From sequence record OQ703618.1: a stretch of DNA of 64,000 bases; one strand, 5' to 3'. This DNA is from Escherichia phage GADS24. This document shows, in pieces, positions 8,109 through 63,050 of the stretch (position 1 is its first letter; each line of letters begins with the position of its first letter). The position numbers and the translations under genes are program-made. The notes under the pieces were generated by a model that saw only the letters and a program-made list of their open reading frames with translations, searched no databases and was not told the origin of the DNA.

Positions 8109-8137
8109 ATAGTATCATAGACCATAGTTGTTGTACA
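8109..8137 (-). promoter_or_regulatory. T4-type early promoter (-35 TGTACA, 17-bp spacer, -10 TACTAT) with small inverted repeat around -10
   Basis: Minus-strand hexamers with 17-bp spacing, followed by conserved AGACCTATCAA. Confidence 0.55.
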
Positions 8138-8662
8138 TCATTTTAGCAAAATAAAATCAACTTGTTCTGCCAATGAACGTCTGAACATTAATTGACAACT
8201 TCCGAGGATGAAATCAGGTGCTTCATAGACCGCGATGTAGTATCCTTTAGCTTTCAAGAGTTCAACATCCACCTGGTCATCAAACCATGCATAAACCGCG
8301 TCAACACTTTCAAATCCAAAATAGAACCCTTGAGCCCAATCTTCGCTCAATTCAAATGCGTGATCAATTCTATAGTATCTTAAGATATTTTGTTCAAGGA
8401 GTTTGTCTTCATTTACTGTAGGACGATTAGGGACATTATAGTTGTCGCCGTGATGGTAGAAGTTACCTGAGAGTATTCCATGCTTATCAAGGAACTCCCA
8501 TGTTTCTTCAGAGTTGTCGGTGCCCGACCAACCGTATGGCGAGCGAGGTTCTTTATTCCAAGAGGTTTCCCAAATTCTGACGGCTTTACCGTCTTCGATA
8601 GCAATTCCAGGTAATGATTCACGTTGAGTACAAAAACTACGTTCTACGCGGTAAACTAACAT
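8138..8662 (-). CDS. hypothetical protein
   Basis: 174-aa ORF with SD, own early promoter. Confidence 0.5.
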   Translation of the reverse strand: MLVYRVERSFCTQRESLPGIAIEDGKAVRIWETSWNKEPRSPYGWSGTDNSEETWEFLDKHGILSGNFYHHGDNYNVPNRPTVNEDKLLEQNILRYYRIDHAFELSEDWAQGFYFGFESVDAVYAWFDDQVDVELLKAKGYYIAVYEAPDFILGSCQLMFRRSLAEQVDFILLK

Positions 8663-8688
8663 ATTATTCTCCTCTGGTTGATATGGTT

Positions 8689-8717
8689 ATAATATCAAAA
8701 CCAGAGGAGAAGTAAAC
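8689..8717 (-). promoter_or_regulatory. T4-type early promoter (-35 GTTTAC, -10 TATTAT) flanked by inverted repeat pairing with SD
   Basis: Hexamers 17 bp apart; arms cctctggtt/aaccagagg. Confidence 0.55.
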
Positions 8718-8721
8718 AACT

Positions 8722-9141
8722 TTATGCAAAAGCAGCTGGGCTATATTTTTTAATTTGGAATTCAGGAACTACCATGAACTGTCCAGCGAAAACGATGTTA
8801 TAAAGCTTGACACCATCTTCTACCCAACGGTCGCTAATAAATCCAGCGATTTGCTTAGTTTTCCACGGCGTTCCATCAGTTGCCGCAGCAATAGTGAATT
8901 CATGGTCTTTTTCAACAGAAACTGATCTGCATAGTCCCCATTTGAACGCTTTTTCTTCTGGTTCAATGAATTGGCTTTTAACGTAGCCAATATTACCATT
9001 AGCATCACGAACTTTAACTTGGTTACGGCCAAAAACCGGATCACTCACAGAAAGAACTTCAACCAACTTCCCGGCAACTTTAGAGCGAGAAGCAACAGAT
9101 ACATATACGTAATCACCTGTAGAGAGATTTACAATATTCAT
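8722..9141 (-). CDS. hypothetical protein, tandem paralog family member A
   Basis: 139 aa; shares SRSKxAGxLVEV and GFISDxWVEDGxKLYNIVF blocks with next ORF. Confidence 0.55.
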   Translation of the reverse strand: MNIVNLSTGDYVYVSVASRSKVAGKLVEVLSVSDPVFGRNQVKVRDANGNIGYVKSQFIEPEEKAFKWGLCRSVSVEKDHEFTIAAATDGTPWKTKQIAGFISDRWVEDGVKLYNIVFAGQFMVVPEFQIKKYSPAAFA

Positions 9142-9150
9142 AATAATTCC

Positions 9151-9648
9151 TTAAGCTTTACGAGGAGACACATAGCGAGTGATTTCAGATTCTTTAACAA
9201 CTCGGAAGTCACCTAAGAATACGATATTGTATAACTTTTCACCATCTTCAACCCATTGGTCACTAATGAAGCCACACATAATATCAGTTTTGCTTGGATA
9301 TCCGTATTCGTCGATGTAATCAAATTCTTTATCGGTTATAAATTCAACGCCTTTGCAAAGGGCCCATTTAAACTGTGTAGTAGGCTCAACGATATCGTTT
9401 GAAGCAAAGTGTGCAGGTGCAACTTCTTCGCTTGAAGCAAATTGGACTCGTATATGTTTTTCCAGGAATTTAGGACTTACGTAAGCATACTGGGCATCTT
9501 GTCCGCCAAAACTAGGAATGATTCGAACTTTAACTTCTTTAATACGTCCCATGCCATTTGTGCGAAGTCCGACAACTTCAACCAGACGACCTGCGGCTTT
9601 AGACCGGGATGCAGTTGATACACGTTTAATTTCACCAATAGTAATCAT
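9151..9648 (-). CDS. hypothetical protein, tandem paralog family member B
   Basis: Start taken at MITIGEIK with SD; ORF-track 5' extension overlaps promoter. Confidence 0.55.
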   Translation of the reverse strand: MITIGEIKRVSTASRSKAAGRLVEVVGLRTNGMGRIKEVKVRIIPSFGGQDAQYAYVSPKFLEKHIRVQFASSEEVAPAHFASNDIVEPTTQFKWALCKGVEFITDKEFDYIDEYGYPSKTDIMCGFISDQWVEDGEKLYNIVFLGDFRVVKESEITRYVSPRKA

Positions 9649-9678
9649 ATTTTTTCTCTCTTTGTTTAAGTTGAATTC

Positions 9679-9707
9679 ATTATACTCCATCCATCCTTGG
9701 ATGTACA
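9679..9707 (-). promoter_or_regulatory. T4-type early promoter (-35 TGTACA, -10 TATAAT)
   Basis: Hexamers 17 bp apart; part of repeated ~40-bp cassette. Confidence 0.55.
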
Positions 9708-9710
9708 ACA

Positions 9711-10205
9711 TTAATTTAGAATATTAACTACTGCACTACGTGGAACCACACTAAAGTCACCGGCATGAACAACGTTCAGAAGTTCAACCCCATCTTCAAT
9801 CCACTGGTCAGTTACCCAGCCACTTACCGGTCCAGCGAATGGTCGACGAATTGAAACTGCTTTACACAACAAGTCTGTAGGCTCAATAGGCTTAATCAGA
9901 GTACCGTACATACAAGCGATATCCATATCAAAGTGGAGACCATCTTTAACAGGTGCTTCTTCAATCAACAGTTCAAAGTCAGTGCTTGGAATGGCGGTAG
10001 TAGAAATTGTACCGTGTGAATTTTTAATTTCTAAGAATAACCAAGGGCCTTCAGCTTGTTTGATGAAGTTAACAATAGTGAAACTATTACCTTGAGTGGC
10101 ACCTAAAATTTCACAAAACTTTTCATAAGCTCGCACTGAAGCACCGTACCAGTTGATTTGTTTTTCGTCTTTCAGGATGTAAGTAGCCGTAGTATTGATA
10201 TTCAT
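9711..10205 (-). CDS. hypothetical protein, tandem paralog family member C
   Basis: 164 aa; C-terminal WVTDQWIEDGVELLNVV block related to members A and B. Confidence 0.55.
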   Translation of the reverse strand: MNINTTATYILKDEKQINWYGASVRAYEKFCEILGATQGNSFTIVNFIKQAEGPWLFLEIKNSHGTISTTAIPSTDFELLIEEAPVKDGLHFDMDIACMYGTLIKPIEPTDLLCKAVSIRRPFAGPVSGWVTDQWIEDGVELLNVVHAGDFSVVPRSAVVNILN

Positions 10206-10220
10206 AATGTTTTTCCTGTT

Positions 10221-10270
10221 TGGTTAAGATAGAAAGATTATACTCCAACCATCCTTGGTTGTAAACTGAT
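10221..10270 (-). repeat. ~50-bp early-promoter cassette copy (near-identical to 51801..51853)
   Basis: agatagaaagattatactccaacc[a/g]tccttggttgtaaactgattt seen at both sites. Confidence 0.7.
10237..10266 (-). promoter_or_regulatory. T4-type early promoter (-35 GTTTACA, -10 TATAAT)
   Basis: Hexamers with 17/18-bp spacer inside repeat cassette. Confidence 0.55.
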
Positions 10271-12582: not shown

Positions 12583-13329
12583 TTAACCTTTAATCAGTTG
12601 GAATAATGATGCGCTAAGTGGTAGGCCACGTTTCAATTTTAATTTACCAATGAAACCGATCTTTTCAAAACGTTGCAGACCTTGGATAACTTTATCATAT
12701 GTATCGAAAAGCGATTCAGCGTCAGTTAATTTAGTTTTAGTTTTCCAGTCAGAGCCTTTAAGAAGAACATTGAGTTTAGTAAGTTCATGGCCTTCTGCTT
12801 GATGTGAGCCATTAATGCGTGCTTTCAAAGCAACAATTCTAAGTTTAGATTCGTTAGATAAAGGTTGATTTTTCATCATGTTCGCCATATGCTTAACACG
12901 ATTTTCACGTTTTGCTCGGATTTTTAAAATAGTACCATAAACCTTTTTAATTTGGGCCCATTTCTTCTCGTCGAGATTAAGTTTCTCTACTTTACGGGCA
13001 GAAGGATTAGCAATACGTCTTGCAACAGCGTCACGTTTCTCAATAAGTTCTTCTAATGTTAAATCAGAACGAGCCGTGTTATATTTTTTCTTAACTGGGA
13101 TAACATTACCTTTAATGTAGCCTATATCATTATTAAAACGTTCTAAGGATAATTTCTCACCTTCAACAGAGTTATTGAAAGATTCACCTGAGTAAGCGCA
13201 GACCTTTTGATCAAGAATGTTTTTAAGGTAATTAAAGTCTAAGTTAAAATCCTTAGAGCGTCTCTTCGCAGAAGCTCTAGTGTGGTCAAGACGACGATTG
13301 ATTTTGTTAATTTTATTATTTGATAACAT
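12583..13329 (-). CDS. hypothetical basic protein (possibly degenerate HNH-like or Srd-position protein)
   Basis: 248 aa; Lys/Arg rich; CAYSGESF...IGYIKGNV resembles degenerate HNH; assignment uncertain. Confidence 0.45.
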   Translation of the reverse strand: MLSNNKINKINRRLDHTRASAKRRSKDFNLDFNYLKNILDQKVCAYSGESFNNSVEGEKLSLERFNNDIGYIKGNVIPVKKKYNTARSDLTLEELIEKRDAVARRIANPSARKVEKLNLDEKKWAQIKKVYGTILKIRAKRENRVKHMANMMKNQPLSNESKLRIVALKARINGSHQAEGHELTKLNVLLKGSDWKTKTKLTDAESLFDTYDKVIQGLQRFEKIGFIGKLKLKRGLPLSASLFQLIKG

Positions 13330-13378
13330 AATATTTTCCTCTGTCTTACGGACGTTAGGTCATTTAGCTGATAGGTCT

Positions 13379-13407
13379 ATAATATCACGCCCTCAGGTAG
13401 TGTACAC
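13379..13407 (-). promoter_or_regulatory. T4-type early promoter (-35 GTGTAC, -10 TATTAT)
   Basis: Hexamers 17 bp apart followed by AGACCTATCA. Confidence 0.5.
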
Positions 13408-13481: not shown

Positions 13482-14090
13482 TCAGTAACTGACAATAGAC
13501 AGATTCCAGATTGTATAACGTCCATCTTGAATAATAGAATCTACACGCAGTGTAGTCCCTATAGGGAGCATAAATTCACATTCGTCAGATATAAGTCTAG
13601 CATTAGACCGTCTTGTCGCTTCAGGGAAAGCTCCATTGAACTCGCAAGATGGTGCAGCCAGAATCATATTAAGCATATGTTCACGGAAGTTGAAAGCAAA
13701 TGGTGCATCTTTGATGCAGAACATATTAAATGTTCCATAAAAATTATATGAAGCGAAGTTACGTGCTACACCAAACACCGGACTAAAGCTCATTACTCTA
13801 TCAAATTTAATAATACTACCAACGCCTTTATCGTCGAGTGTGGCCATAGTTTTCTTAGAGATTCCACGATACATTGTCTCAGGAACTGAAGAAGACCAAT
13901 TTCTACGAACGATTGAACTTAACTCCTGTTGAATACAGTCTGGCTTGTTTTCCATACACTGCCAAAGGATGCTTTGTTCATTATCGTTGAATTGACTATC
14001 AATTTCGTACTGCAATACATCTTGATATTCGGGGTTTTGAGCACGACGAACCATTTCTTCAATTTCACACTCGTTATACGGCATAAACAT
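13482..14090 (-). CDS. ADP-ribosyltransferase, ModB-like
   Basis: 202 aa; R (YRG), S-x-S (FSP) and E-x-E (ECE) motifs; tandem with paralog; T4 modA/modB synteny. Confidence 0.55.
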   Translation of the reverse strand: MFMPYNECEIEEMVRRAQNPEYQDVLQYEIDSQFNDNEQSILWQCMENKPDCIQQELSSIVRRNWSSSVPETMYRGISKKTMATLDDKGVGSIIKFDRVMSFSPVFGVARNFASYNFYGTFNMFCIKDAPFAFNFREHMLNMILAAPSCEFNGAFPEATRRSNARLISDECEFMLPIGTTLRVDSIIQDGRYTIWNLSIVSY

Positions 14091-14118
14091 TTTGGTTTCT
14101 CCTCTGGTTGATAGGACT

Positions 14119-14147
14119 ATAGTATCATCGTCCTTGTTGTTTGTACA
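14119..14147 (-). promoter_or_regulatory. T4-type early promoter (-35 TGTACA, -10 TACTAT)
   Basis: Hexamers 17 bp apart. Confidence 0.5.
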
Positions 14148-14729
14148 CTAAAAATTCAACATTTTTAAATGAATGATTTTGTATAACCGAGATAAAGGGT
14201 CATATTCTAAGTCTTCAATTTCCACAATCTCAAATCTAGAGATACCTGAGACCATGTACTCTTGTTCAGATTCAATCATATCTAGGACGTCAACACGTGT
14301 TTCTTCCATAACATGCTTAGGGTTCTTTCCGGCAAGTACAATGTTAACCATGTTTTGGTAGTAATCAAAAACGAATGGAGCATTCCTGAGACTAAGAATA
14401 GTGTACGTCTGGTATTCCCAACTCCCGGAGAATTGACGAGCTGTACTGAAATCAGTTGTGAACGATGTTACTCGTCCAGGAGACCAATGGCATCCAACAG
14501 AAAGAAGTGAAAGACGTTCTACTTCTTCTGGAGTTACACCACGGTAGAGTTCTACTGGTACTGTAGAAGTCATATGCTTACGAACAAGATGGTCTAATTC
14601 ATAGTGGAAATCCGGGTCTTCCTTAGAATCGGTGCAAGCCCAGAGAATGTTTTGTTCTTGGCGGGTGAATTTGCTATCAATCAGATTTGTTAGGTATTCA
14701 CGTTCTTGAAGTTCAGATTGACATGTCAT
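14148..14729 (-). CDS. ADP-ribosyltransferase, ModA-like
   Basis: 193 aa; LYRG and acidic catalytic motif; paralog of 13482..14090. Confidence 0.55.
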   Translation of the reverse strand: MTCQSELQEREYLTNLIDSKFTRQEQNILWACTDSKEDPDFHYELDHLVRKHMTSTVPVELYRGVTPEEVERLSLLSVGCHWSPGRVTSFTTDFSTARQFSGSWEYQTYTILSLRNAPFVFDYYQNMVNIVLAGKNPKHVMEETRVDVLDMIESEQEYMVSGISRFEIVEIEDLEYDPLSRLYKIIHLKMLNF

Positions 14730-14756
14730 GATAGACCTCCATTTAAAGATAAGCCT

Positions 14757-14785
14757 ATCATAACACGAGAGGAGGGAATGTAAAC
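14757..14785 (-). promoter_or_regulatory. T4-type early promoter (-35 GTTTAC, -10 TATGAT)
   Basis: Hexamers 17 bp apart upstream of modA-like gene. Confidence 0.5.
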
Positions 14786-16015: not shown

Positions 16016-16208
16016 TAATTGTTCCTCGAACAAAACGAACACCACCATCGTCCCAACGAATTTCGGAATTAAATTTGACGTCTTCACCATCCATCATGAA
16101 TGAGTGTACGACTACATCATCATAATATCCAAGACCATATTTCAACGAAACTTCTTGAGCAATCAAAGCACCTAATGTGTTATTAGGTTTAATCCAACGA
16201 TTTAACAT
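15981..16208 (-). CDS. hypothetical protein
   Basis: Start at MLNRW with SD aggag; promoter cassette upstream. Confidence 0.4.
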   Translation of the reverse strand: MLNRWIKPNNTLGALIAQEVSLKYGLGYYDDVVVHSFMMDGEDVKFNSEIRWDDGGVRFVRGTINAYDAEEVVCC

Positions 16209-16237
16209 ATTGTTCTCCTCTTGAGTAAGTAGGAATA

Positions 16238-16266
16238 TCTTAACACAGTTTTTAGTGGTTGTAAAC
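16238..16266 (-). promoter_or_regulatory. T4-type early promoter (-35 GTTTAC, weak -10 TAAGAT)
   Basis: Hexamers ~18 bp apart. Confidence 0.4.
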
Positions 16267-16275
16267 TGTAGAAAC

Positions 16276-16303
16276 AAAAAAAAAGGAATCCCGAAGGATT
16301 CCT
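16276..16303 (-). terminator. intrinsic terminator downstream of soc
   Basis: 8-bp stem aggaatcc, UUCG tetraloop, then run of 9 T on minus strand. Confidence 0.75.
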
Positions 16304-16311
16304 TAAATTAT

Positions 16312-19805: not shown

Positions 19806-20091
19806 CTGTGATTTCGGTTACGATATCTTTGTTATCGAAATTAGGGTCACAATACAAAACATAATTGTACTGCATGATACCGCCAGACTTAAGTTGTTCA
19901 ACAACTTTATTAACCATATTAGGACGGTCTCTTTTAGTGATGTTCATGATATCAGAGAAGATTTGTTGTTCAACATCTTCTTGATTTGCAGTCATTGACC
20001 ACTCACAGAGGTCTTTATCATAACCTGCCGTAACTGGAGCTGGTGCACATGATACTGCAAGTAAGATTGCTGCCAATGATAACTTTTTCAT
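19798..20091 (-). CDS. secreted protein with signal peptide (Spackle-like position and size)
   Basis: 97 aa; N-terminal signal peptide; SD aaggag; T4 sp synteny only. Confidence 0.45.
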   Translation of the reverse strand: MKKLSLAAILLAVSCAPAPVTAGYDKDLCEWSMTANQEDVEQQIFSDIMNITKRDRPNMVNKVVEQLKSGGIMQYNYVLYCDPNFDNKDIVTEITGE

Positions 20092-20120
20092 TTTAACTCC
20101 TTAGTTGATTTGATAGGACT

Positions 20121-20150
20121 ACTATACTATAGTCCATCTATAATGTAAAC
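20121..20150 (-). promoter_or_regulatory. T4-type early promoter (-35 GTTTAC, -10 TATAGT) with inverted repeat
   Basis: Hexamers ~18 bp apart; stem ggacta/tagtcc. Confidence 0.5.
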
Positions 20151-20154: not shown

Positions 20155-20403
20155 TTATTCTTTTTCGCGAATAATAATTACTTGTTGAGGCTGCTGAGCA
20201 GATTTCTTTTCGGCAACGATAGACCAAATTAAAGTTCCAATCCAACCAACCATCGTCCAGTTAAAGAGTAAAGATACAAAGAAGATTGCTGTTGTGCTTT
20301 TTGTGCCACGAATAAGTGCGATTACCCAAGGCAACATGTAAATGATGATTGAACCAATACCTGCGATTAAAACCGCTACTGAACTAGCTACGAATAATTC
20401 CAT
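20155..20403 (-). CDS. small integral membrane protein
   Basis: 82 aa, two hydrophobic helices. Confidence 0.45.
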   Translation of the reverse strand: MELFVASSVAVLIAGIGSIIIYMLPWVIALIRGTKSTTAIFFVSLLFNWTMVGWIGTLIWSIVAEKKSAQQPQQVIIIREKE

Positions 20404-20464
20404 GTTAATTTCCTCTTGATTTGTTATGTTTATAATATCTTATTTTAACTTTGGTGTAAACCAA

Positions 20465-20833: not shown

Positions 20834-20861
20834 TTCAATTTCCTCTGTGGTTGATAGAAAG

Positions 20862-20890
20862 ATAGTAACACAGTATGCGATGCTTGTAAA
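20862..20890 (-). promoter_or_regulatory. T4-type early promoter (-35 TTTACA, -10 TACTAT)
   Basis: Hexamers 17 bp apart. Confidence 0.5.
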
Positions 20891-20893
20891 CAG

Positions 20894-21613: not shown

Positions 21614-21639
21614 TTTGTTCTCCAGTAGTTGATAAGTCT

Positions 21640-21668
21640 ATAATAACACAACTACTGGAGAAGTAAAC
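21640..21668 (-). promoter_or_regulatory. T4-type early promoter (-35 GTTTAC, -10 TATTAT) flanked by 10-bp inverted repeat ccagtagttg/caactactgg
   Basis: Hexamers 17 bp apart; arm pairs with SD region. Confidence 0.55.
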
Positions 21669-50534: not shown

Positions 50535-50809
50535 TATAATGTTCTCTCAAATTTGTGGAAGCATTTACGGCATTTCAATTTCAAGTTATCAGTAGTCCAG
50601 TTAACAAGTTGGACTTGGATAGTTCCACATTCTGGGCATGGATGTTTTGCTGCCGATTTGGCAGCATTTTCACGCCGTTCAACCATTTTCATGATTTCGT
50701 TCCATGCCGGAGGAACGAACTCTTCTTCACCGTGGATTTTATCTCGCTGAACAAATTCAATCTTTGAACTATCGTCAATAAACTTAACCAAGCTATGATT
50801 AGTGCTCAT
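50534..50809 (-). CDS. zinc-ribbon protein
   Basis: CPECG...CRKC; SD agagga. Confidence 0.45.
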   Translation of the reverse strand: MSTNHSLVKFIDDSSKIEFVQRDKIHGEEEFVPPAWNEIMKMVERRENAAKSAAKHPCPECGTIQVQLVNWTTDNLKLKCRKCFHKFERTL

Positions 50810-50838
50810 ATCAATATCCTCTAAAAGACGTAGTTTCA

Positions 50839-51789
50839 TTATAAAACCTCAATGGCATTTCGTAAACCGTCCGCTTTCGCATTCAGAGCTTTTAACGATT
50901 TAGTTTGTTCTGCAATCTGGGCTTCGACTTCTTTCAGACGAGATTTGAGGTATTCGCGTTCTTCTCTTAAATTATCAACTTTTTCTGCTTTAGGTTCTTT
51001 AATAGACTTAGGTTTATACGTATTAGGGTTCTTCAGCTTAATTTGAATACGAGAACTGAATAACATTGAACCGTTATCTTCGGTTTCGCTGAACATTTCA
51101 ACAACATCCATAGTCTGTAGTATCATACGAAGTTTATAAGACAATGAACGAACGGTTTTGTTATGCTTATTAATTTCTTCAGCTTTCATGGTACCGAGAT
51201 TACGTGAGTAGTAATAAGGAACCTGGATATCAATTGATAATGATGCGTTACCATTACCGGTTGGTTTGAATACTGCAGTAACCCAATCTTTAACATGAAC
51301 TTTATTTGTACGACCATCACCGCCCGTGAATAATTTACGAGAATGTTTAAAAAGCATATTCACTTGGTTATTGAATTCACAAGCAAATTTATCAGCAAAT
51401 TTAGTTTCAGGAATGGTAGATAACCAATCAGCCAAATGAGTCTTTTTAACATCATTAACAATAGTGAATTCAACCAAATCAGTTTTAGATGTCACAGATT
51501 TAATAAAGCTTGGCTTCATAAAGTTTTTAATGTTATCACGAGCCACAGTAGAAGATAATAAACGAGAACGTTTGAACCATTGAAGCAGTGTCCCTAATGA
51601 ATGAGAATACGCATTCTGAGTATCTTTACAGATATGATTTTCTTGACCTGTGTATGTACCAAAATCTCGAAGAATACCACTTACTACATCTCGGTGTGGA
51701 ACATCAAATCCTAATGAACCGGAAGCACGTTGGGCATGAACGTTAGCGATAAGACCTGCAAAATAATCAATGTAATGTGAACGTGTCAT
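50839..51789 (-). CDS. hypothetical protein with C-terminal coiled coil
   Basis: 316 aa, own early promoter. Confidence 0.5.
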   Translation of the reverse strand: MTRSHYIDYFAGLIANVHAQRASGSLGFDVPHRDVVSGILRDFGTYTGQENHICKDTQNAYSHSLGTLLQWFKRSRLLSSTVARDNIKNFMKPSFIKSVTSKTDLVEFTIVNDVKKTHLADWLSTIPETKFADKFACEFNNQVNMLFKHSRKLFTGGDGRTNKVHVKDWVTAVFKPTGNGNASLSIDIQVPYYYSRNLGTMKAEEINKHNKTVRSLSYKLRMILQTMDVVEMFSETEDNGSMLFSSRIQIKLKNPNTYKPKSIKEPKAEKVDNLREEREYLKSRLKEVEAQIAEQTKSLKALNAKADGLRNAIEVL

Positions 51790-51800
51790 AATATTTTCCT

Positions 51801-51853
51801 CTCGTTAAGATAGAAAGATTATACTCCAACCGTCCTTGGTTGTAAACTGATTT
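51801..51853 (-). repeat. ~50-bp early-promoter cassette copy (near-identical to 10221..10270)
   Basis: Direct nucleotide comparison of both copies. Confidence 0.7.
51818..51847 (-). promoter_or_regulatory. T4-type early promoter (-35 TTTACA, -10 TATAAT)
   Basis: Hexamers 17 bp apart. Confidence 0.55.
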
Positions 51854-52787
51854 ATGGTTTTAATGCATTCATTGCGTTAAAAAGTTTAGAGTACTGCAAC
51901 TGGAGCTTGGTAACTACTTGTTGAGCATCACGAAGCTTAGCTTGTGCTTTATCAAGTTCAACAGACAGTTGGTCCATAGTGCCCTTGATTTGATTATAAT
52001 AGTAATCTTCGGCAGGAAGAAGACCATTAGATATTTCCAGTTTAGTCGACGGTGAAGTGTATATAGATGGAGCAGTAGAATATGCACCTAGAACTTCAGC
52101 ATTGCCAATTGGGGTTGCAGTAATTGACGCTTCGAACGTCGCATTTTCCTTTTTAAGATTTTGATAGTATTCAGAGTCTTTGTGCCACCATGGCGCAGGA
52201 ACCTTTTTACCAATAGATACACGAGCCTGGATAGCGATATGGCCCTTATTCTTGATAGGGTTGATAATATTAAGCTCGCGAGAATAAATTGCTTTAATCT
52301 GGTGGATATTATCACCTAACACTTCCAACGCTTGGTGGAATACACGAGCAACGTTATCATTCTTAGGTTTATACGTAAGAGTGAATTCGTTCTCACTGAT
52401 AACCATAATTTCCAACTTATCGTAAGTATATTTCAAATGTTTCATGTTAATTGCTTGAGGACGAATACGAGAAGCAATGGCCATCAGATTGTTAAGGTTA
52501 TTCCGGAACTGCTTAGCGAAATATTGTCCTTCACCACCAATACAAAAATTACGAAGTTTCTGTTTAGCTAATAAACGGCTGAACTCACCATTTTTAATGA
52601 ACTCTTTAACGGGTGTGTTAGTAACGCATTCAAATTGAGTAAACTTACGAGAAGTAATCCCATAATATGAACAGACTTCCTCAATCTCTTCAGGAGTCTT
52701 TACAGGCATACGGATAGGATTAGGTCCTGGAGTATATGCGTTCGAGGTAAATTCTTTGATAAGTTCTCTACGTGTAATAAAAGCCAT
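51852..52787 (-). CDS. hypothetical protein with C-terminal coiled coil
   Basis: 311 aa. Confidence 0.5.
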   Translation of the reverse strand: MAFITRRELIKEFTSNAYTPGPNPIRMPVKTPEEIEEVCSYYGITSRKFTQFECVTNTPVKEFIKNGEFSRLLAKQKLRNFCIGGEGQYFAKQFRNNLNNLMAIASRIRPQAINMKHLKYTYDKLEIMVISENEFTLTYKPKNDNVARVFHQALEVLGDNIHQIKAIYSRELNIINPIKNKGHIAIQARVSIGKKVPAPWWHKDSEYYQNLKKENATFEASITATPIGNAEVLGAYSTAPSIYTSPSTKLEISNGLLPAEDYYYNQIKGTMDQLSVELDKAQAKLRDAQQVVTKLQLQYSKLFNAMNALKP

Positions 52788-52813
52788 TTTATATTCCTCG
52801 TGTTGAAAAATTT

Positions 52814-52842
52814 ATTATACTCCAACCGTCCTTGGTTGTACA
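52814..52842 (-). promoter_or_regulatory. T4-type early promoter (-35 TGTACA, -10 TATAAT), cassette variant
   Basis: Hexamers 17 bp apart; shares tatactccaaccgtccttggttgta with other copies. Confidence 0.55.
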
Positions 52843-53838
52843 TCATTCCTTAAGAAGTTTTACTACTTGAATAAGATTAGCTCGTTCTGTTTTATTTTTA
52901 CCGTTTAAGCCTGCTAATCGTGAGATTTCATCGTCAGTCTGTTGAATAGTTACATTAAGTTCGTTAATCAAAGCTTCAAAGTATTTGATTTGCTCAGCAT
53001 GTTTTGATTCAAATTTCTGAACCGGAATAACGTCTTGGTTCAGTTCATCAATAAGGTCTTTAAGAGCATCTTCTTGGTTGATATCATATTCAACTTCTTT
53101 TATTTCTTCAACGAGCTCGTCTTTATATCTAACGTCTTTTAGTCCTGGAGCTGGTCCTGAAATCTCTTCTTTAAGAGTACAAACATATACATTACGGTAT
53201 CTAATGCCGTCTCGCTTGATATCAACTTCGTCAATAAATCCACAATGTTTAAGTCCAGAGCCGATTATGTCAAAATATCCTTGACGTTGTCCTTCAAACG
53301 TTACACGAACTACTAAGACAGTTTTGCCACCAACCTTTTGAAGCTCACATTTATAAAAGTCTGTTGAACCTGAATAACGCGGATGAGTTTTAAAGTTCAT
53401 CTGACGATCTAGGCCCATTTGTAAGCGTGCTGATACGGCCATAAAACGTGTTTGGTTCTCGTTAAGATGAGCAACAATCCGTTTCAAAGGCATTTTACCC
53501 TGTTCACGACCGAACAAATCAGTACGTCCTAGATTACGCAGAATGTTGTTAGAGTTAATCATCGACAGAACGTTAAGTTTATTCAGCGCGCTGAAGATTC
53601 CATCGGCCATTGATTTTCCGTAACCTTTACACGCTTTAATAAGCGCTCGCGGGAGATTAGTATAGATTTCAGACGGCATATGAAAATCAAATTTACTAGT
53701 CAGTAATTGATGAACTTGGATAGCAATTTGCTCATAATTAAGTGCTCTGCGATCGTTATGGTCTTTAAACCACACTTTAATCTGTGAAGCACATAAACCG
53801 TTAATTTCATGTTTTACCGCATCAGATGTAATGCTCAT
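52843..53838 (-). CDS. hypothetical protein with C-terminal coiled coil
   Basis: 331 aa. Confidence 0.5.
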   Translation of the reverse strand: MSITSDAVKHEINGLCASQIKVWFKDHNDRRALNYEQIAIQVHQLLTSKFDFHMPSEIYTNLPRALIKACKGYGKSMADGIFSALNKLNVLSMINSNNILRNLGRTDLFGREQGKMPLKRIVAHLNENQTRFMAVSARLQMGLDRQMNFKTHPRYSGSTDFYKCELQKVGGKTVLVVRVTFEGQRQGYFDIIGSGLKHCGFIDEVDIKRDGIRYRNVYVCTLKEEISGPAPGLKDVRYKDELVEEIKEVEYDINQEDALKDLIDELNQDVIPVQKFESKHAEQIKYFEALINELNVTIQQTDDEISRLAGLNGKNKTERANLIQVVKLLKE

Positions 53839-53900: not shown

Positions 53901-54428
53901 TTATGCGTGAACCGTCTTTAAACGTTCTTCAAATTTCCGAAGAGTACTAATACGTTCTGCTTTCTGTTTTGTATAGTTTGCAATACGTTCTGAAGTGAGA
54001 GCGTATCGTTCGTTTACTGTTTCTTTCATGAAGTCAGGGATTTCACGAGAAGCTTTAATTTCATCAAACTTATCGAGTACTGCCTGGTCTTCAGCGATTA
54101 AATTTTCGTACATCTCGATATCTTTCTTGATAAACTCGATATCTTCCTGGGTTACTTTGGATAAACGAGATGCTTTATCCTTTTTGTACTGCTCGTTAGT
54201 TTCACGAGACCAGAATAATGTACGTTTTTTGTTAGTATTTTTGTAGACTTCCACAATTCCAACTGAATCGATGATAGCAATCCAATTCCAGCGAGATTTG
54301 AAAATCTGACCTCCGTCCACGGTAATCTCATTACCATAAGCAACGTCATTAAAGAACTTGCTTTGTGCTTCAGATTTAAATTTACCGTCGTTATAATTTA
54401 CCAGGTTGAAAATATCTTTAGCGTTCAT
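53901..54428 (-). CDS. hypothetical protein
   Basis: 175-aa ORF. Confidence 0.5.
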   Translation of the reverse strand: MNAKDIFNLVNYNDGKFKSEAQSKFFNDVAYGNEITVDGGQIFKSRWNWIAIIDSVGIVEVYKNTNKKRTLFWSRETNEQYKKDKASRLSKVTQEDIEFIKKDIEMYENLIAEDQAVLDKFDEIKASREIPDFMKETVNERYALTSERIANYTKQKAERISTLRKFEERLKTVHA

Positions 54429-54455
54429 GTTTTACCTCCAGTAGTTGATAGGTCT

Positions 54456-54484
54456 ATAATAACATAACCATAGACCTTGTAAAC
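54456..54484 (-). promoter_or_regulatory. T4-type early promoter (-35 GTTTAC, -10 TATTAT)
   Basis: Hexamers 17 bp apart. Confidence 0.55.
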
Positions 54485-54912: not shown

Positions 54913-55914
54913 TTATTTCAGTAAAGTTACTTCAGAGATTTCCTCCCAACCATCTTTATCAGTTGAAATAAAATCTGCTACATAAAGAGCCGTACGTAAT
55001 GATACGTTGCGAAGACGAGATACGTTAGCCTTCATCCAGGACAATGCTTTATACGTTTCTGCATCTGTCAGACCACGTTTCTGCATCATGTCAGTAGATA
55101 ATATTACATCTTCAACTCGAACCATAATCTCTTCATTAGAGTGTACTCCAAGGTCAAGATACACTGAACGAGATACTAAAGCTTGAAGGTGTGGGGCAAG
55201 CTTCGAACCGCGTTCTAACTCTTTATCGATATCAACGTTTGTAATGAAAACGATAGTACCTTCAAACTCAAATTCTTTATCAATACCCTTATCATCGAGA
55301 TAAGATGACGCAGTGCTCCAACAAACTTTGCGTTTATCTCCGGTATCTAATGCTGCTTTAAGAAGGTTCAAGATGTCCATATCTGAGAATACGTCAACGT
55401 CGTCGATTAAGAGAACGCTATCTGCATCACGGTTGAGCCAAAGTTGTTCGTAAAGGCCTATACCAGAGATTTTACCATTAATGCTTTTGTATTTGATGAA
55501 ACCATTATCATTAGCATTATTAAGTGCTTTATCCAGAGAATACGTCTTACCAATACCAGCTGCACCTGAAATAATGAGTGAACGAATTTTGCCATCGATA
55601 ATGCCATTCGTCATCATGTTCATTACTTTAAAGCGTTTGTTGATACGAGTTTTCATATCTTCAGTGCTTTCAACAACTGCAACTGGTGATGTCTCAACTC
55701 CTTCCATTACGATGTCTGATTTGAAGACCCATACTCCACGTTCAGAACCATCAATCATAACGAAAATTTTACCATCACCTAAGTGGGAACATTCAGGATT
55801 AAGCTTTGCCGGGAACCAGGTCTTTGTGGCAACATAAGAACCAGAGATTTCGTTATTACGATAGATACCTTTTTTGATTTGAACGTTGAACATTTTATTC
55901 TCCAATTTACTCAT
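54913..55914 (-). CDS. P-loop ATPase (AAA-like)
   Basis: 333 aa; Walker A GAAGIGKT and Walker B LLIDDVD. Confidence 0.55.
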   Translation of the reverse strand: MSKLENKMFNVQIKKGIYRNNEISGSYVATKTWFPAKLNPECSHLGDGKIFVMIDGSERGVWVFKSDIVMEGVETSPVAVVESTEDMKTRINKRFKVMNMMTNGIIDGKIRSLIISGAAGIGKTYSLDKALNNANDNGFIKYKSINGKISGIGLYEQLWLNRDADSVLLIDDVDVFSDMDILNLLKAALDTGDKRKVCWSTASSYLDDKGIDKEFEFEGTIVFITNVDIDKELERGSKLAPHLQALVSRSVYLDLGVHSNEEIMVRVEDVILSTDMMQKRGLTDAETYKALSWMKANVSRLRNVSLRTALYVADFISTDKDGWEEISEVTLLK

Positions 55915-55931
55915 TTCGTTTCGATAGGTCT

Positions 55932-55960
55932 ATAATAACATGTTTAAAGCAAAAGTAAAC
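55932..55960 (-). promoter_or_regulatory. T4-type early promoter (-35 GTTTAC, -10 TATTAT)
   Basis: Hexamers 17 bp apart. Confidence 0.55.
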
Positions 55961-55962
55961 AA

Positions 55963-56181
55963 TTATTTGCGACGAGATTTTTTGGTAAGAGGTTGAAAGA
56001 ACACTGCTTTACCGGCTGGGGTTAAGGTGACTCGTAATGCGTTACCGATTCCTAAGGATGCTTTAACTAGACCTTTAGCTTTCAGTTCACCGAATGCTTG
56101 ACGTTGGTCTGCATCACGAGTGTTAACCATAAGACCTTTATCACCTGCTTCACGAATCATTTCTAACATTTTGGTTTTCAT
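55963..56181 (-). CDS. hypothetical protein
   Basis: Start MKTKMLEM. Confidence 0.4.
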   Translation of the reverse strand: MKTKMLEMIREAGDKGLMVNTRDADQRQAFGELKAKGLVKASLGIGNALRVTLTPAGKAVFFQPLTKKSRRK

Positions 56182-56209
56182 TTTGTTCTCCTCTTGTTTT
56201 GATAGGTCT

Positions 56210-56238
56210 ATAATAACATATCCTAAAAGCATGTACAC
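56210..56238 (-). promoter_or_regulatory. T4-type early promoter (-35 GTGTAC, -10 TATTAT)
   Basis: Hexamers 17 bp apart. Confidence 0.55.
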
Positions 56239-58602: not shown

Positions 58603-58918
58603 ATTATTCACCAATTAAAGTTTCGACAAAATTCACCAAAGCATTCTGGCAAGCATCAACCTGATTTTCATAAAAGTCCACGTTATCATTTACCGCATGA
58701 TAAGCTACATCATTCAAATCTGAATCGGCTTCACGTAAGTCATGGATAAGGTCCATCAATTTATTAGCTTGTTCACGGGTCATTTTACCATACTCGTTTC
58801 AATAAGATTCACTATGCCGTTTACCATGTTATAAGTAAACATCGGATAATTGTATTGTACTACAACATAAGCGATAAGCAAAAGTTTCATTTTGTTCTCC
58901 ATTTGTTTTGGTAGGATT

Positions 58919-58948
58919 ACTATATCATAGTCCTACCAAGACGTAAAC
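58919..58948 (-). promoter_or_regulatory. T4-type early promoter (-35 GTTTAC, -10 TATAGT) with inverted repeat ggtaggactat
   Basis: Hexamers ~18 bp apart. Confidence 0.5.
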
Positions 58949-59181: not shown

Positions 59182-59341
59182 ACATTTGCAATTCGGTGTG
59201 GGCTTCAGCCATCTTTTTCATAGCTCTGTTAATGTCGATGTCTCCATCTTCGCAACCATGAGCATTTTCCCAATCAGACACCGCATTAGCGTACTCTTCA
59301 ATCAAAAACATCAACTTAGAAATCTTTTCTTTACGTGTCAT
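59162..59341 (-). CDS. hypothetical protein
   Basis: Start MTRKEK with SD aggaga. Confidence 0.35.
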   Translation of the reverse strand: MTRKEKISKLMFLIEEYANAVSDWENAHGCEDGDIDINRAMKKMAEAHTELQMYVNEIM

Positions 59342-59368
59342 AACGTTCTCCTCTAGTAAGTAAAGACT

Positions 59369-59397
59369 ACTATAACACAACCTGAGGAGAAGTAAAC
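59369..59397 (-). promoter_or_regulatory. T4-type early promoter (-35 GTTTAC, -10 TATAGT)
   Basis: Hexamers 17 bp apart. Confidence 0.55.
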
Positions 59398-60771: not shown

Positions 60772-60995
60772 TTAGGTTCACCTTCTTTAACGAAATCTGG
60801 GTAAGGGTAAAATCCTGAGTAAAACCCTTCACCTTTATGATTGCTACAACCTTTGTTCGAACAGTAACACCAATAATCAAAATCACAAGCCATTTCGTCA
60901 TTGCATAAAGCAAAAACTACAGGCCATTCGCATTTTTCGCATTTAGCACCTGTAAGAATTTTTGTTTGACTCATAGCCATGTCACCTTTAAGCAA
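60768..60995 (-). CDS. Cys-rich small protein (putative zinc binding)
   Basis: CEKCE...CNDEMACD...CYCSNKGC. Confidence 0.4.
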   Translation of the reverse strand: MLKGDMAMSQTKILTGAKCEKCEWPVVFALCNDEMACDFDYWCYCSNKGCSNHKGEGFYSGFYPYPDFVKEGEPK

Positions 60996-61198
60996 TATTC
61001 TTCTACATGTTGTTTACGGCCTTTCTTATCAATAAAGGTATATTCAACGAATGTTCCGATGTAGTCTTTATCTACATCATGTGGACTATTAATTGGGCAT
61101 TTGGTACGACAAATGCGTTCCCATTGACGAATAATTACTGCCTTATTCTTTGGGTCATATGGATGTGGATAATGTATATTCATAATAACGGTTCCCAA
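60971..61198 (-). CDS. hypothetical protein
   Basis: 75-aa ORF. Confidence 0.4.
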   Translation of the reverse strand: MGTVIMNIHYPHPYDPKNKAVIIRQWERICRTKCPINSPHDVDKDYIGTFVEYTFIDKKGRKQHVEEYCLKVTWL

Positions 61199-61677
61199 TC
61201 AACAATCACAATTTCTAGTTTAGTGGAATACGTATCTAAAATCTCTTCGATGACATCCCAGTTTCCACCACCAATACCTGCACCAATTCTTGGCATATAA
61301 ATTACAGGCTTTGTTATCTTATTCTTTCCGAATTCATTTAATTCTATTATACAATTCATTAAAGCAGAGTACTCAAAATTAGGTCCCGGCTCAAACTGCG
61401 TATAAAGATTAAAGCAATAAGCTTTATGGGTCTTAAAATATTTTTCATAAACCGAATAAGTCCCGAGTTTAGACTCGTCTCCGAATTCGGTTTGAAGTTT
61501 ATCAGCTTCCAGAATTTTTGGATAAGCCTTTGCTAATTGTCCTGCCACACCGGCGCCCATTGTATGAAAACAATTACACCCATGAGCGATATTATTACCT
61601 TTAGAAAACAGGGCGACAATATCGCCCTTGATATAGTTTTTAATCACTTGCTGCAAGTCCTCTATTATAAGAGTCAA
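61180..61677 (-). CDS. macro domain protein (ADP-ribose binding/hydrolase-like)
   Basis: 165 aa; GCNCFHTMGAGVAGQL and GIGGG macro signatures. Confidence 0.6.
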   Translation of the reverse strand: MTLIIEDLQQVIKNYIKGDIVALFSKGNNIAHGCNCFHTMGAGVAGQLAKAYPKILEADKLQTEFGDESKLGTYSVYEKYFKTHKAYCFNLYTQFEPGPNFEYSALMNCIIELNEFGKNKITKPVIYMPRIGAGIGGGNWDVIEEILDTYSTKLEIVIVDWEPLL

Positions 61678-61987
61678 CTAGACGGTCCACCATAGAATTG
61701 CATGCTGCCTTATCTTTAGGTTCCGCCACCGAGCATTCTAATATTTGCCATTTTTTATAGTATCTTTTAATTAAGGTAGACGCCTTGAACCTACTAGACG
61801 CCCCATCTTTTTCTCCGTCTTTATACGCATATAACAATTTTTGTGAAAAATCTACTTTACACTCTTGACTTTGACCACAATAATCAGACGCCGTTCTGTT
61901 TGTATACTCCGTTATATCAGTATATGTAGTATTAGCAAGAGCGTTAAATGAAACCAAGCCAACTATTAAAGCCAACATTTTGGTCAT
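61640..61987 (-). CDS. secreted protein with signal peptide
   Basis: 115 aa. Confidence 0.45.
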   Translation of the reverse strand: MTKMLALIVGLVSFNALANTTYTDITEYTNRTASDYCGQSQECKVDFSQKLLYAYKDGEKDGASSRFKASTLIKRYYKKWQILECSVAEPKDKAACNSMVDRLVDSYNRGLAASD

Positions 61988-62526
61988 TCTTTTATTTCCA
62001 GTAGTTTATTTGATTTAAGGTAATTGGCCTTTTCTAGGACTTCAGAAGCATATTTACTTCCAGCACTTGTCTTCCATCCCGCGTTATATGAGGATATAGC
62101 TTTTCTTATATCCCCATTATGTATATTTAACCAATAAGAAAATTCGATATAAGCCCATCTGGCTGAATTAGACCGCTTAGATAGCATTTTCTTAATTTGG
62201 GCATCAGTCATATTATAACCAAGCTGGTTAATTCTTGCCCTCATTGTTGGTAGATAATTTTGGAACATTCCATACGCATGGTGACCTTTCTTATCTTTAA
62301 GATTAATACCGGCAGATGATTCCTGCCATAGTATTGCGGCCATTATGTATCCAAGTCCTTTCTTATGCATATTTTCATGCGTTTTAAATTTTCCGTCCTT
62401 AGAAAACTGTTCCCCGAACTGATAAGCATAATTCAAGTTATCGAGTTGGACATTACTAAAAGTATGCTCGGAGCTATGTGCTGATAACGAAAGAGCAAAT
62501 AGACCAGCGAGTAGTGCTTTTCTCAT
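61984..62526 (-). CDS. secreted lytic transglycosylase-like protein (SLT domain)
   Basis: Signal peptide; catalytic-region motif WQESS...GMFQ. Confidence 0.5.
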   Translation of the reverse strand: MRKALLAGLFALSLSAHSSEHTFSNVQLDNLNYAYQFGEQFSKDGKFKTHENMHKKGLGYIMAAILWQESSAGINLKDKKGHHAYGMFQNYLPTMRARINQLGYNMTDAQIKKMLSKRSNSARWAYIEFSYWLNIHNGDIRKAISSYNAGWKTSAGSKYASEVLEKANYLKSNKLLEIKE

Positions 62527-62534
62527 GTTTACCT

Positions 62535-62993
62535 CTAGATTTTAATCACTGCTTTAGAAGCTTTTCCTGGTAGTCGTTTACTGTTAATAATAGCCATTCT
62601 GCATTGAAGAGTCTTCATTTTGAATGCTGGATTTTCGCGACAAACTGTAAGTCCTAACCAAAGATTTCCGTCAGTTATTTCTAAACGGCCTGGGCGATAT
62701 TCGACACCTTCGACAAAATCTTCATCAACATCTGGACGTGCCGGCATTGATAAAAATTCTGCAACTTCTTTAACATGATTTTTTACTTTACGAAATAATT
62801 CAAAAACGTAATTCTCGTCTATTTCTCTCTGGATGGCACGATCTAAGAGATGTTGAGAATACTTGATATGAAAGCCTGGTAGTCCAAGAGACTTTGCAGC
62901 ATCTTTTATACCGGCATTTATTTTGCGGAACTCCGTTTCAAAGATTCGACGGAGTTTATTACGGCGGATAAAAACGTCTGAATTGATAGTCAT
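62535..62993 (-). CDS. regB: RegB site-specific endoribonuclease
   Basis: 152 aa; long identical blocks to T4 RegB. Confidence 0.85.
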   Translation of the reverse strand: MTINSDVFIRRNKLRRIFETEFRKINAGIKDAAKSLGLPGFHIKYSQHLLDRAIQREIDENYVFELFRKVKNHVKEVAEFLSMPARPDVDEDFVEGVEYRPGRLEITDGNLWLGLTVCRENPAFKMKTLQCRMAIINSKRLPGKASKAVIKI

Positions 62994-63021
62994 TTTGATT
63001 TCTCCTCTAGTTGACAGGTCT

Positions 63022-63050
63022 ATAGTAACACAACTAGAGGAGAAGTAAAC
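63022..63050 (-). promoter_or_regulatory. T4-type early promoter (-35 GTTTAC, -10 TACTAT) flanked by 11-bp inverted repeat tcctctagttg/caactagagga
   Basis: Hexamers 17 bp apart; downstream arm carries regB SD. Confidence 0.6.

Follow-up and report, generated by a model that had tools for sequence, protein, structure and literature searches.

Repeated early-promoter cassettes with inverted repeats in Escherichia phage GADS24 and their possible role in Shine-Dalgarno occlusion

The 64,000-nucleotide stretch of Escherichia phage GADS24 analysed here (sequence record OQ703618.1, referred to below as the window) carries a series of repeated early-promoter cassettes, a number of which contain inverted repeats close to the Shine-Dalgarno (SD) sequence of the gene that follows. 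The window is that of an RB69-like (Mosigvirus) T4-type coliphage, with 95-99% identity to RB69 and related Mosigvirus phages; alignment with RB69 gives 95-99% identity over 41-64 kb, while the 60-64 kb portion is 98-99% identical to several RB69-related Escherichia phages. Nearly all window genes are carried by the minus strand and follow the order of the T4 early region, namely rIIA, 39, goF, cef, motB, dexA, dda, srd, modA/B, soc, 56, 61, sp, imm, dmd, 41 and uvsX, continuing with 43, regA, 62, 44, 45, 46, 47, 55, nrdG, nrdD, 49, the nrdC.x series, tk, vs and regB. The genes situated 3' of the cassettes are T4 early genes, these being regB, motB, motB.1, motB.2, cef, srd, modA/B, imm, sp and members of the nrdC.x and 55.x series.

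A site scan anchored on the -10 element, with GTTTAC or NTGTAC as the -35 hexamer, followed by hand curation, identified 27 promoter-like cassettes (Table 1), 25 of which are intergenic and two of which lie in the ends of open reading frames (ORFs). All are on the minus strand, between approximately 8.1 and 63.05 kb, which bears out the proposal in a first-pass annotation of this DNA that at least 20 minus-strand intergenic sites of this kind are present. The -35 hexamer is GTTTAC at 19 sites and (G/A/T)TGTAC at eight, and the -10 takes the form TAnnnT (TATTAT, TATAAT, TACTAT, TATAGT, TATGAT or TAAGAT). The promoter form given in the annotation stands to this extent, the spacer being 17 or 18 nt when counted from the GTTTAC/NTGTAC hexamer. 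The 25 nt 5' of the -35 are 71% A+T and 39% A (window: 63% A+T), the distance from the -10 to the ATG is 26-31 nt in most of the 25 intergenic cassettes, and the cassettes are about 60-100 bp in length with a leader of about 21 nt. The conserved core after the -10 consists of a C-rich discriminator followed by (C/T)TATC, and going by this consensus the transcription start would lie at the A of CTATC.

A motif said to be shared by the sites after the -10, AGACCTATCAA, is indeed enriched at one mismatch or fewer, with 12 matches, on the minus strand only, against 1.3 expected, but it is present within one mismatch in only nine of the 27 cassettes. Two matches, at 32047 and 40598, lie inside genes 43 and 47 without a promoter and were rejected as chance occurrences, while that at 42698 lies 5' of gene 55 without a -35. 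The strict form GTTTAC-N16-18-TAYWATAG has four matches against 0.01 expected. A generic sigma-70 scan, with 57 sites found against 50 expected, was not enriched overall, the signal being specific to the T4-type consensus. Rfam covariance models gave no match at gathering thresholds across the whole window.

Anchored at the -10 and compared over 58 nt, cassette pairs are on average 47% identical and up to 83% where paralogous, against 27% for random 58-mers; cassettes 51823 and 10242 are 83% identical (numbers refer to the start of the -10, as in 63027 for the cassette of regB). The cassettes form two clusters, at 8.1-22.1 kb and 43.6-63.0 kb, and are absent from the 21.5-kb replication core at 22.1-43.6 kb (P ~1.6e-5 under a uniform model). 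Three ORFs without a T4 homologue (55963-56181, 43641-43880 and 21669-22043) each lie between two cassettes.

For RB69, 58 early promoters have been predicted (Nolan et al., 2006, PMC1524935, Additional File 3), and all 26 of those in syntenic stretches correspond to window sites. The 13 predictions at 42-62 kb each fall on a window site when the offsets of the window-to-RB69 alignment are applied, and the 13 at 6.8-21 kb agree with the 13 window sites at 8.1-22.1 kb in number, order and spacing, which leaves window site 50843 as the sole extra one. The same cassettes are found in T4, 5' of the orthologous genes; the T4 RefSeq record contains no promoter features. Common to the window sites and the early promoters of RB69 and T4 are the GTTTAC -35, the TAnnnT -10 and an A-rich segment at about -42 (PMC1524935; Hinton, 2010, PMC2988021), and the preference for C at -3 to -1 in RB69 (PMC1524935) equates to the ACC within the AGACCT part of the motif in the first-pass annotation. 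The promoters themselves are already known as RB69/T4 early promoters, and there is high confidence that each cassette is a sigma-70 early promoter joined to a short leader. Hairpins, stem-loops, palindromes or inverted repeats are nowhere mentioned by Nolan et al. (2006).

The pairing potential within the cassettes was assessed by taking the best RNA duplex of each -35-plus-spacer segment with the -10-to-ATG stretch of every cassette and comparing own with non-own combinations, a design by which the effects of the shared consensus cancel. Own duplexes are more stable than non-own ones in the window (-11.2 versus -8.2 kcal/mol), in T4 (-12.5 versus -8.2) and in phage JS98 (-10.6 versus -7.8), with the observed mean reached in none of 20000 permutations in each case. 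In a set of 350 unique cassettes, drawn from 1.46 Mb of T4-like phage DNA, the 99th percentile of the null formed by non-own combinations is exceeded by 18% and the 95th by 30%, and it follows from this excess that about a quarter to a third of cassettes have cassette-specific complementarity. In the window, anatomy places a stem-loop within or next to the promoter in approximately 16-20 of the 27 cassettes, 7-8 of which are individually significant (z score of -1.9 or lower), and about seven have no noteworthy stem.

Three classes of stem can be distinguished. Class a (five to seven of the 27 cassettes) has its 5' arm in the spacer and the SD within its 3' arm. Its members are strong at 63027, 21645 and 8694, moderate at 45045 and weak at 59374, 22078 and 14762, with stem energies of about -22 to -24 kcal/mol for three of them and -10 to -13.5 for the weaker ones. 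Two of the examples put forward from the first reading, 63003..63041 and 21622..21660, are of this class and prove to be perfect 14-bp repeats, whose 5' arm is located within the spacer and whose 3' arm covers the SD. The accompanying statement that many cassettes have an SD-containing arm has to be given up at this count, only three being individually strong (z -4.9, -6.6 and -7.3). In class b the 5' arm again lies in the spacer, but the 3' arm comes right after the -10, so that the -10 is in the loop and the SD is free. Such stems are well supported at 58924, 43917, 43617 and 54461 and weak at 8114, 20126 and 14124. A further example of the first reading, 43903..43930, belongs here; its 12-bp repeat is perfect, but the SD, at 43892, falls outside the 3' arm, which ends at 43901. 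Half of the well-supported stems enclose the -10 only and leave the SD free.

Class c comprises hairpins of 5-6 bp with an AAGGA loop lying wholly in the spacer, found at 52819, 51823, 10242 and 9684. None of them is individually significant (fold z -0.6 to -1.3), and they are retained as an anatomical class only, because the stems vary on both sides around the conserved loop. This SD-like AAGGA loop occupies the same place in the spacer in all four (52821-52837, 51825-51842, 10244-10261 and 9686-9703), with stems such as AACCA/TGGTT and ATCCA/TGGAT, and CCACA/TGTGG in T4 (L017/L018, 5' of nrdC.4 and rIIA.1).

The possibility that stems bridging the -10 are canonical intrinsic terminators was rejected. 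None is followed by a U-tract, there being at most four T in the 8 nt after each stem, and a terminator scan of 7.5-22.5 kb, which found 13 candidates overall against 9.3 expected, flagged none of them on the minus strand. A separate hairpin 5' of the -35 is present in four cassettes and is followed by a T-run in 59374 and 16242, but not in 22078 and 56215. That of cassette 16242, at 16283-16304 between soc and mrh.2, is a symmetric terminator hairpin, AAGGAATCC-ttcg-GGATTCCTT, with a minus-strand T7 run; the scan flags it on both strands.

The effect of the stems on SD accessibility was predicted by folding a read-through RNA, which began 45 nt 5' of the -35 and ran until 36 nt beyond the ATG, and a local RNA starting at the seventh nucleotide after the -10. 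The unpaired fraction predicted for the SD hexamer of regB is 0.00 in read-through RNA and 0.42 in local RNA, the corresponding values being 0.03 and 0.61 for 59374, 0.01 and 0.67 for 21645, and 0.00 and 0.34 for 8694. In these four cassettes the SD is essentially fully paired only in read-through RNA. Accessibility is intermediate in 14762 (0.05 versus 0.28), 45045 (0.18 versus 0.64) and 16242. Over all 25 intergenic cassettes the mean is 0.35 for read-through RNA and 0.51 for local RNA (p=0.017). As a positive control, the same folding recovers the known hairpin switch of gene 49, with the SD unpaired at 0.00 and TATAAATA next to the 5' arm.

At gene 49 itself, the upstream segment at 48569-48640 (minus strand) has the late promoter TATAAATA followed by a hairpin, ACCCTTA...TAAGGGT, that buries the SD. 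In the window TATAAATA occurs only at gene 49 and rI.1. The late promoter of the latter lies within 59970-60045; folding of the long transcript leaves little of the rI.1 SD unpaired (0.09), and rI.1 may be another late-promoter hairpin switch. Upstream of gene 55, at 42698-42745, the inverted repeat ATAGGTCT/AGACCTAT surrounds TATAAT-AGACCTATGAA; this site is without a recognisable -35 or a well-spaced MotA box, and its SD is predicted to be paired (0.01).

The SDs of cassette genes are also distinctive in sequence. GGAG serves as SD in 13 of the 27 cassette genes against five of 61 other window genes (p=5e-5), and GGAGRAYARAA occurs at one mismatch or fewer in six of 27 against none of 61 (p=5e-4). 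The latter corresponds to the consensus for RegB/S1 cleavage, GG*AGRAYARAA, and it is known that RNA structure shields GGAG from RegB and that RegB cuts the SD of its own mRNA (PMC3014915). Examples of this consensus in the window are GGAGAACAAAA at 56215, 58924 and 21645 and GGAGAATAAAA at 55937. The cassettes thus resemble the RegB/S1 sites of early T4 mRNAs in being enriched for GGAG and for the full motif, and regB lies behind the strongest class-a cassette, both in the window and in T4. A class-a stem would be expected to protect its SD from RegB.

Comparison of 16 regB loci, with 40-98% protein identity, shows that most of those with a recognisable early promoter retain a stem between spacer and SD, in which the sequence other than the SD varies and is compensated. 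The stem is CTCTAGTTG/CAACTAGAG in the window and close relatives, CTCTTGACTG/CAGTTAAGAG with two G·U pairs in the T4 type, CTCTTTATG/CATAAAGAG in locus L009 and CTGTAAG/CTTACAG in L012 and L015; in L013 and L014 the cassette has changed to a class-b stem. In an alignment of eight class-a sequences, seven of 15 pairs are altered on both sides and none of 500 shuffles reaches the observed covariation, which illustrates rather than proves the point, as the eight were picked for having stems. When the register of this alignment is slid, pairing drops from 89% to 40-59%. It was used in place of a 12-sequence MAFFT alignment in which four sequences were out of register. Distant phages carry unrelated class-a stems, for example CTCCGTGAGTTTGGT/ACCAAACTCACGGAG in L119. 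For motB.2 and ORF 43641-43880, the orthologues in IMG/VR were near-identical copies only and therefore uninformative.

The strand on which selection acts can be judged from the non-Watson-Crick pairs. In the well-supported stems of the 350-cassette set, after clustering, there are 25 G·U against 10 A·C on the sense strand (p=0.0009 against a null fraction of 0.43 taken from non-own helices, p=0.017 against 0.5). Such an excess is predicted by selection on the sense RNA, whereas a DNA-level process does not predict an asymmetry. Comparison of sense with antisense duplex energy (21 versus 13, p=0.067) is suggestive only.

In make-up and genomic placement the cassettes are of the promoter early stem-loop (PeSL) type. 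PeSL cassettes, made up of an early promoter, stem-loop, SD and ATG, recur within hyperplastic regions (Arbiol et al., 2010, PMC2839356; Comeau et al., 2014, PMC4122927), the stem-loop being interpreted as a terminator or attenuator and the cassette as a recombination site (PMC2839356, PMC4122927). The window cassettes share with them the A/T-rich upstream region, the sigma-70-like promoter, the stem-loop, the SD and the ATG, and the PST/T4 promoter form TTTACW-N17-TAYWAT is found in the window also. They are likewise intergenic, repeated and located in variable regions, where they flank small ORFs of unknown function. Five stem positions are described (PMC2839356), namely in the spacer between -35 and -10, over either one of these hexamers, 5' of the -35, and immediately before the start site; window stems that cover the -10 or lie in the spacer fit these subclasses. 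However, none of these five positions puts the 3' arm in the SD, as class a of the window does, and the PST/T4 stem-loops are drawn just 5' of the promoter, unlike those of the window. It should be mentioned that RB69-type phages were outside the analysis of those papers and that about a quarter of the window cassettes are stemless. The match to PeSL cassettes made in the first-pass annotation is therefore right as to early-promoter-plus-stem-loop units but does not extend to a stem over the SD, which the PeSL papers never place there.

A closer parallel for class a is provided by the hairpin switches that sequester the ribosome-binding site of T4 e, soc, 49 and I-TevI and of Aeh1 mobE (Uzan and Miller, 2010, PMC3014915). 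The logic is the same, with a promoter in or next to the 5' arm, such that the long RNA buries the SD while the proximal RNA, being devoid of the 5' arm, is translated. Their promoters, however, are late (gp55, TATAAATA) or middle ones and delay expression, whereas class a has a sigma-70 early promoter with the anti-SD arm in its spacer, and the effect would be confinement of expression to the earliest minutes. SD pairing of the kind seen in such switches is predicted for a subset of the window, with an unpaired fraction of 0.05 or less at 63027, 59374, 21645, 8694 and 14762, and the geometry agrees in that a 5' arm in the spacer is 5' of any start placed 6-8 nt after the -10. In the literature searched, which did not cover the older T4 literature, no earlier description of SD occlusion from an early promoter was found, nor any map of T4 start sites or prior account of hairpins at early promoters, and on the predicted structures class a looks like an undescribed variant of the T4 e/soc/49 hairpin switch.

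The cassettes exist and match the early promoters of RB69 and T4, and the complementarity within them is cassette-specific and kept on the sense RNA strand. The reading that we favour, and consider fairly probable, is that these are RB69-like sigma-70 early-promoter cassettes in which the class-a spacer doubles as an anti-SD arm, leaving the SD free only on RNA from the cassette's own promoter. From the consensus, the geometry and the folds we infer where transcription starts, that read-through occurs and how translation or RegB cleavage would be affected. Since the 5' arm is always 5' of the presumed start, the stem would form only in read-through RNA from an upstream promoter. Class-a transcripts from the own promoter would have a free SD, be translated and later be inactivated through RegB cleavage. 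In read-through transcripts the SD would be buried in a stem of 7-14 bp, with the cistron silent and shielded from RegB. Expression of a class-a gene would in this way be confined to a brief pulse from its own early promoter. Stems of classes b and c could not occlude the SD; their action on read-through RNA may be one of attenuation or of guarding the 3' end of the message from upstream. In a minority of cassettes the proposed occlusion has good support, which comes from structure prediction, from covariation and from the strand asymmetry.

Several observations weigh against this reading, in addition to the choice of aligned sequences already mentioned. SD accessibility in read-through RNA is no lower in the 25 cassettes (0.35) than in 56 non-cassette genes (0.43, p=0.26), and SD occlusion is not a general property of cassettes. 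The first-pass proposal of an SD free on local and folded on read-through RNA thus applies, by folding, to the class-a subset but not to the 25 as a whole. The class-a stems of 59374 and 22078 are not individually significant (z about -1.3 to -1.4), and a hairpin upstream of each may already stop read-through. An earlier count on fewer stems, for which duplicate events had been merged by hand, gave 16 G·U and 7 A·C pairs, with p=0.011 when the null fraction is the reference but only p=0.09 when it is 0.5. The cassette of nrdC.8, class b in the window, belongs to class a in T4 and in phages of the JS98 type. The 14-bp stem of 21645 is missing from most of 50 orthologous loci, many of which have an ordinary terminator just 5' of the -35, and natural variants with mismatched stems occur (L010, L011). 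Judging from these comparisons, class-a stems are labile over longer times.

Table 1. Promoter-like cassettes of the GADS24 window, all on the minus strand. Numbers in brackets give the -10 label used in the text; Pe numbers are the corresponding RB69 predictions.
Cassette (gene or ORF 3' of it)	Class	Span	Arms or hairpin	Energy (kcal/mol); z	Other features
regB (63027)	a	62991..63050	63044-63031 / 63013-63000, perfect 14 bp	-21.6; -4.9	-35 63050-63045, -10 63027-63022, ATG 62993; 3' arm holds GAGGAG; Pe:61376
mobD.2a-like ORF (59374)	a, weak	59339..59397	TTCTCCTC 59391-59384 / GAGGAGAA 59353-59346, 8 bp	z -1.4	terminator-like hairpin AGCCCC/GGGGCT + T5 just 5'; Pe:58138
mobD.2 (58924)	b	58888..58948	58942-58931 / 58916-58905, around -10	-15.7; -3.55	SD at 58900 outside stem; Pe:57689
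ORF 55963-56181, RB69 ORF102c homologue (56215)		56179..56238	no -10-bridging stem		hairpin GGGACC/GGTCCC upstream; SD region GGAGAACAAAA, exact RegB consensus match; Pe:55296
nrdC.10 (55937)		55891..55960	no stem	z +0.86	longer leader; Pe:55018
nrdC.8 (54461)	b	54426..54484	AGGTCTAT 54477-54470 / ATAGACCT 54457-54450	-13.6; -1.9	
nrdC.5-like (52819)	c	52785..52843	(C)AACC..GGTT(G), AAGGA loop, inside spacer		
nrdC.3 (51823)	c	51787..51847		z -1.3	
candidate at nrdC.3/nrdC.2 junction (50843)		50807..50867	no stem		outside RB69 list of Nolan et al.; lower confidence
promoter-like site in ORF end		49381..49462	no stem		Pe:48639
55.6 (45045)	a	45009..45068	TCCTCAATAG/CTATAGAGGA + TAGATG/CATCTA, imperfect	-12; -2.7	
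promoter-like site in 55.4 region		44273..44366	no stem		Pe:43242
ORF 43641-43880 (43917)	b	43878..43941	43934-43923 / 43912-43901, 12 bp	-18.6; -3.9	-10 in loop; SD at 43892 free
55.2 (43617)	b	43572..43641	TGAGAGC 43628-43622 / GCTCTCA 43611-43605	z -2.3	
ORF 21669-22043 (22078)	a, weak	22041..22102	TTCCTCT/AGAGGAA, 7 bp	z -1.3	upstream hairpin AAAGGAGAC/GTCTCCTTT
ORF 21296-21613 (21645)	a	21611..21668	21662-21649 / 21631-21618, perfect 14 bp	-21.7; -6.6	
imm.1		20831..20891	stem not significant		
imm		20401..20461	no structure	minimum free energy 0	
sp (20126)	b, weak	20089..20150	GGACTA/TAGTCC		
mrh.2 (16242)		16206..16304	no bridging stem		-35 16266-16261; terminator hairpin + T7 at 16304-16283 directly 5'
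modA/B-like (14762)	a, weak	14727..14785	CCTCC/GGAGG		
modB-like (14124)	b, weak	14088..14148	AGGAC/GTCCT		
srd		13327..13407	no bridging stem		long leader, ATG 49 nt past -10
motB.1 (10242)	c	10203..10266	CAACCA-agga-TGGTTG		
motB (9684)	c	9646..9708	CATCCA-agga-TGGATG		stem differs from that of 10242 on both sides
motB.2 (8694)	a	8660..8717	8711-8699 / 8679-8667, 13 bp	-23.9; -7.3	
cef (8114)	b, weak	8078..8138	GGTCTAT 8123-8117 / ATAGACC 8110-8104	z -1.3	

Other explanations of the stems have to be considered beside SD occlusion. In the interpretation published for PeSL cassettes, the stem-loops attenuate or terminate transcription from upstream, the cassettes are sites of gene-shuffling recombination and the overlap with the SD is incidental. 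The positions of classes b and c are those of the commonest PeSL subclasses in phages phi1 and RB49, and one RB49 stem-loop lowered lacZ expression as much as the rrnB T1 terminator (PMC2839356). The clustering in two variable regions with none at 22.1-43.6 kb, the placing of ORFs without T4 homologues between pairs of cassettes, a replacement relative to RB69 that begins at 63054, four bases 5' of the regB -35, and the full divergence of L009 and L010 5' of the -35 together with the chimeric L027 cassette all agree with it. However, the stems bridging the -10 have neither a U-tract nor, within the scanned 7.5-22.5 kb, a call in the terminator scan. The 3' arm of class a is the SD and covaries with the spacer, which a terminator role does not need. 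Synteny with T4 is broken at 16 of 21 cassette junctions against 57 of 90 others, not a significant enrichment (p=0.32, with crude gene calls and a divergence too large for this test), and only two of the five breakpoints between the window and RB69 touch a cassette. As an explanation of the window stems this appears unlikely. Slightly more unlikely still is a device for RNA stability, in which class-b and class-c stems would block 3'-to-5' exonucleases after RegB or RNase E cuts and so spare the upstream cistron, while class a would shield GGAG from RegB. It draws on the enrichment of cassette SDs for GGAG and the RegB/S1 motif, the blocking of RegB by secondary structure (PMC3014915), the finishing of class-b stems 10-20 nt 5' of a free GGAG and the preponderance of G·U over A·C, a sign of RNA-level constraint on classes a and b together. 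Against this, several cassettes with a GGAG SD are stemless (56215, 55937 and 16242), and for class a the proposal overlaps with SD occlusion by read-through and does not exclude it.

Translational coupling, by which a ribosome ending the upstream gene would melt the stem and free the SD, tying downstream to upstream translation, is a weaker rival and an improbable one. In the three strongest class-a cassettes the upstream stop codon does indeed overlap the -35 or lie close to it, the TAG of vs.3 overlapping GTTTAC at regB, a TAA abutting it at 21668 and a TAA lying 4 nt 5' at 8717, but the 5' arm begins 6-10 nt past the stop codon. A ribosome unwinds RNA to about 7 nt past a stop codon in its A site, and with that reach at most one or two of the 13-14 pairs would open. 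Cassettes of all classes moreover abut an upstream stop codon, so that this is not specific to class a. There is equally little likelihood, in our estimate, that the repeats have no function and are by-products of templated quasi-palindrome correction, hairpin-mediated recombination or paralogous descent. The window stems are all perfect Watson-Crick helices, as templated correction would yield, class-a cassettes 63027, 21645 and 8694 are paralogous (74-81% identical), and stems are gained and lost between orthologues. Yet a process at the DNA level would not be expected to favour G·U over A·C on one strand, distant phages show unrelated arm sequences at the same position, and own duplexes are significantly more stable than non-own ones in three genomes (window, T4 and JS98). 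SD occlusion by read-through RNA in class a may also be put more broadly, in that a sizeable minority of T-even-type early promoters would be doubly coded, the spacer serving in addition as an RNA-selected anti-SD or stem arm, and would form self-insulating units. Translation of the gene, and its exposure to RegB, would then be limited to RNA from its own promoter, the gene being silent and RegB-resistant on read-through RNA. This extension is put forward tentatively, as possible but doubtful.

Comparative signs of exchange at the cassettes exist, as far as the alignments indicate, but are few. In the 100 nt 5' of regB, L009 and L010 have a common regB cassette with unrelated sequence 5' of the -35, the 5' arm of L010 having two mismatches. 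In L027, 5' of the orthologue of ORF 21296-21613, the 3' arm CAACTACTGGAGAA is kept while a terminator replaces the -35 and spacer, giving a chimeric cassette. Both cases look like recombination inside a cassette. The replacement relative to RB69 that adjoins the regB cassette spans 63054-63344, the vs.3 homologue region, where RB69 has ORF117c; one of its breakpoints is the one four bases from the regB -35. An insertion at 56292-56605, also absent from RB69, contains ORF 56290-56571 (93 aa), and its downstream edge adjoins the upstream region of cassette 56215. A further 410 bp absent from RB69, at 60779-61190, contains ORF 60971-61183, the protein of which is 100% identical to T4 tk.3 while its neighbours are 47-85% identical, which suggests a recent exchange with a T4-like phage.

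If the stems are without the effect proposed for class a, the finding amounts to a correct re-identification of known early promoters. If SD occlusion does take place, the choice of promoter would set the translatability of a cistron for early genes too and not for late ones alone, and this would help to explain how proteins of the RegB type are limited to a short burst despite the long polycistronic early transcripts that cross their genes. The stem-loops of PeSL cassettes would gain a role beyond termination and recombination, and for engineering the cassettes would supply a small, naturally occurring template for insulated parts that combine a promoter with a ribosome-binding site. Should the broader form also hold, it would account for spacers that are conserved within a cassette yet differ between cassettes, and toxic or dose-sensitive early genes such as regB would be generally confined to a pulse in the first minutes.

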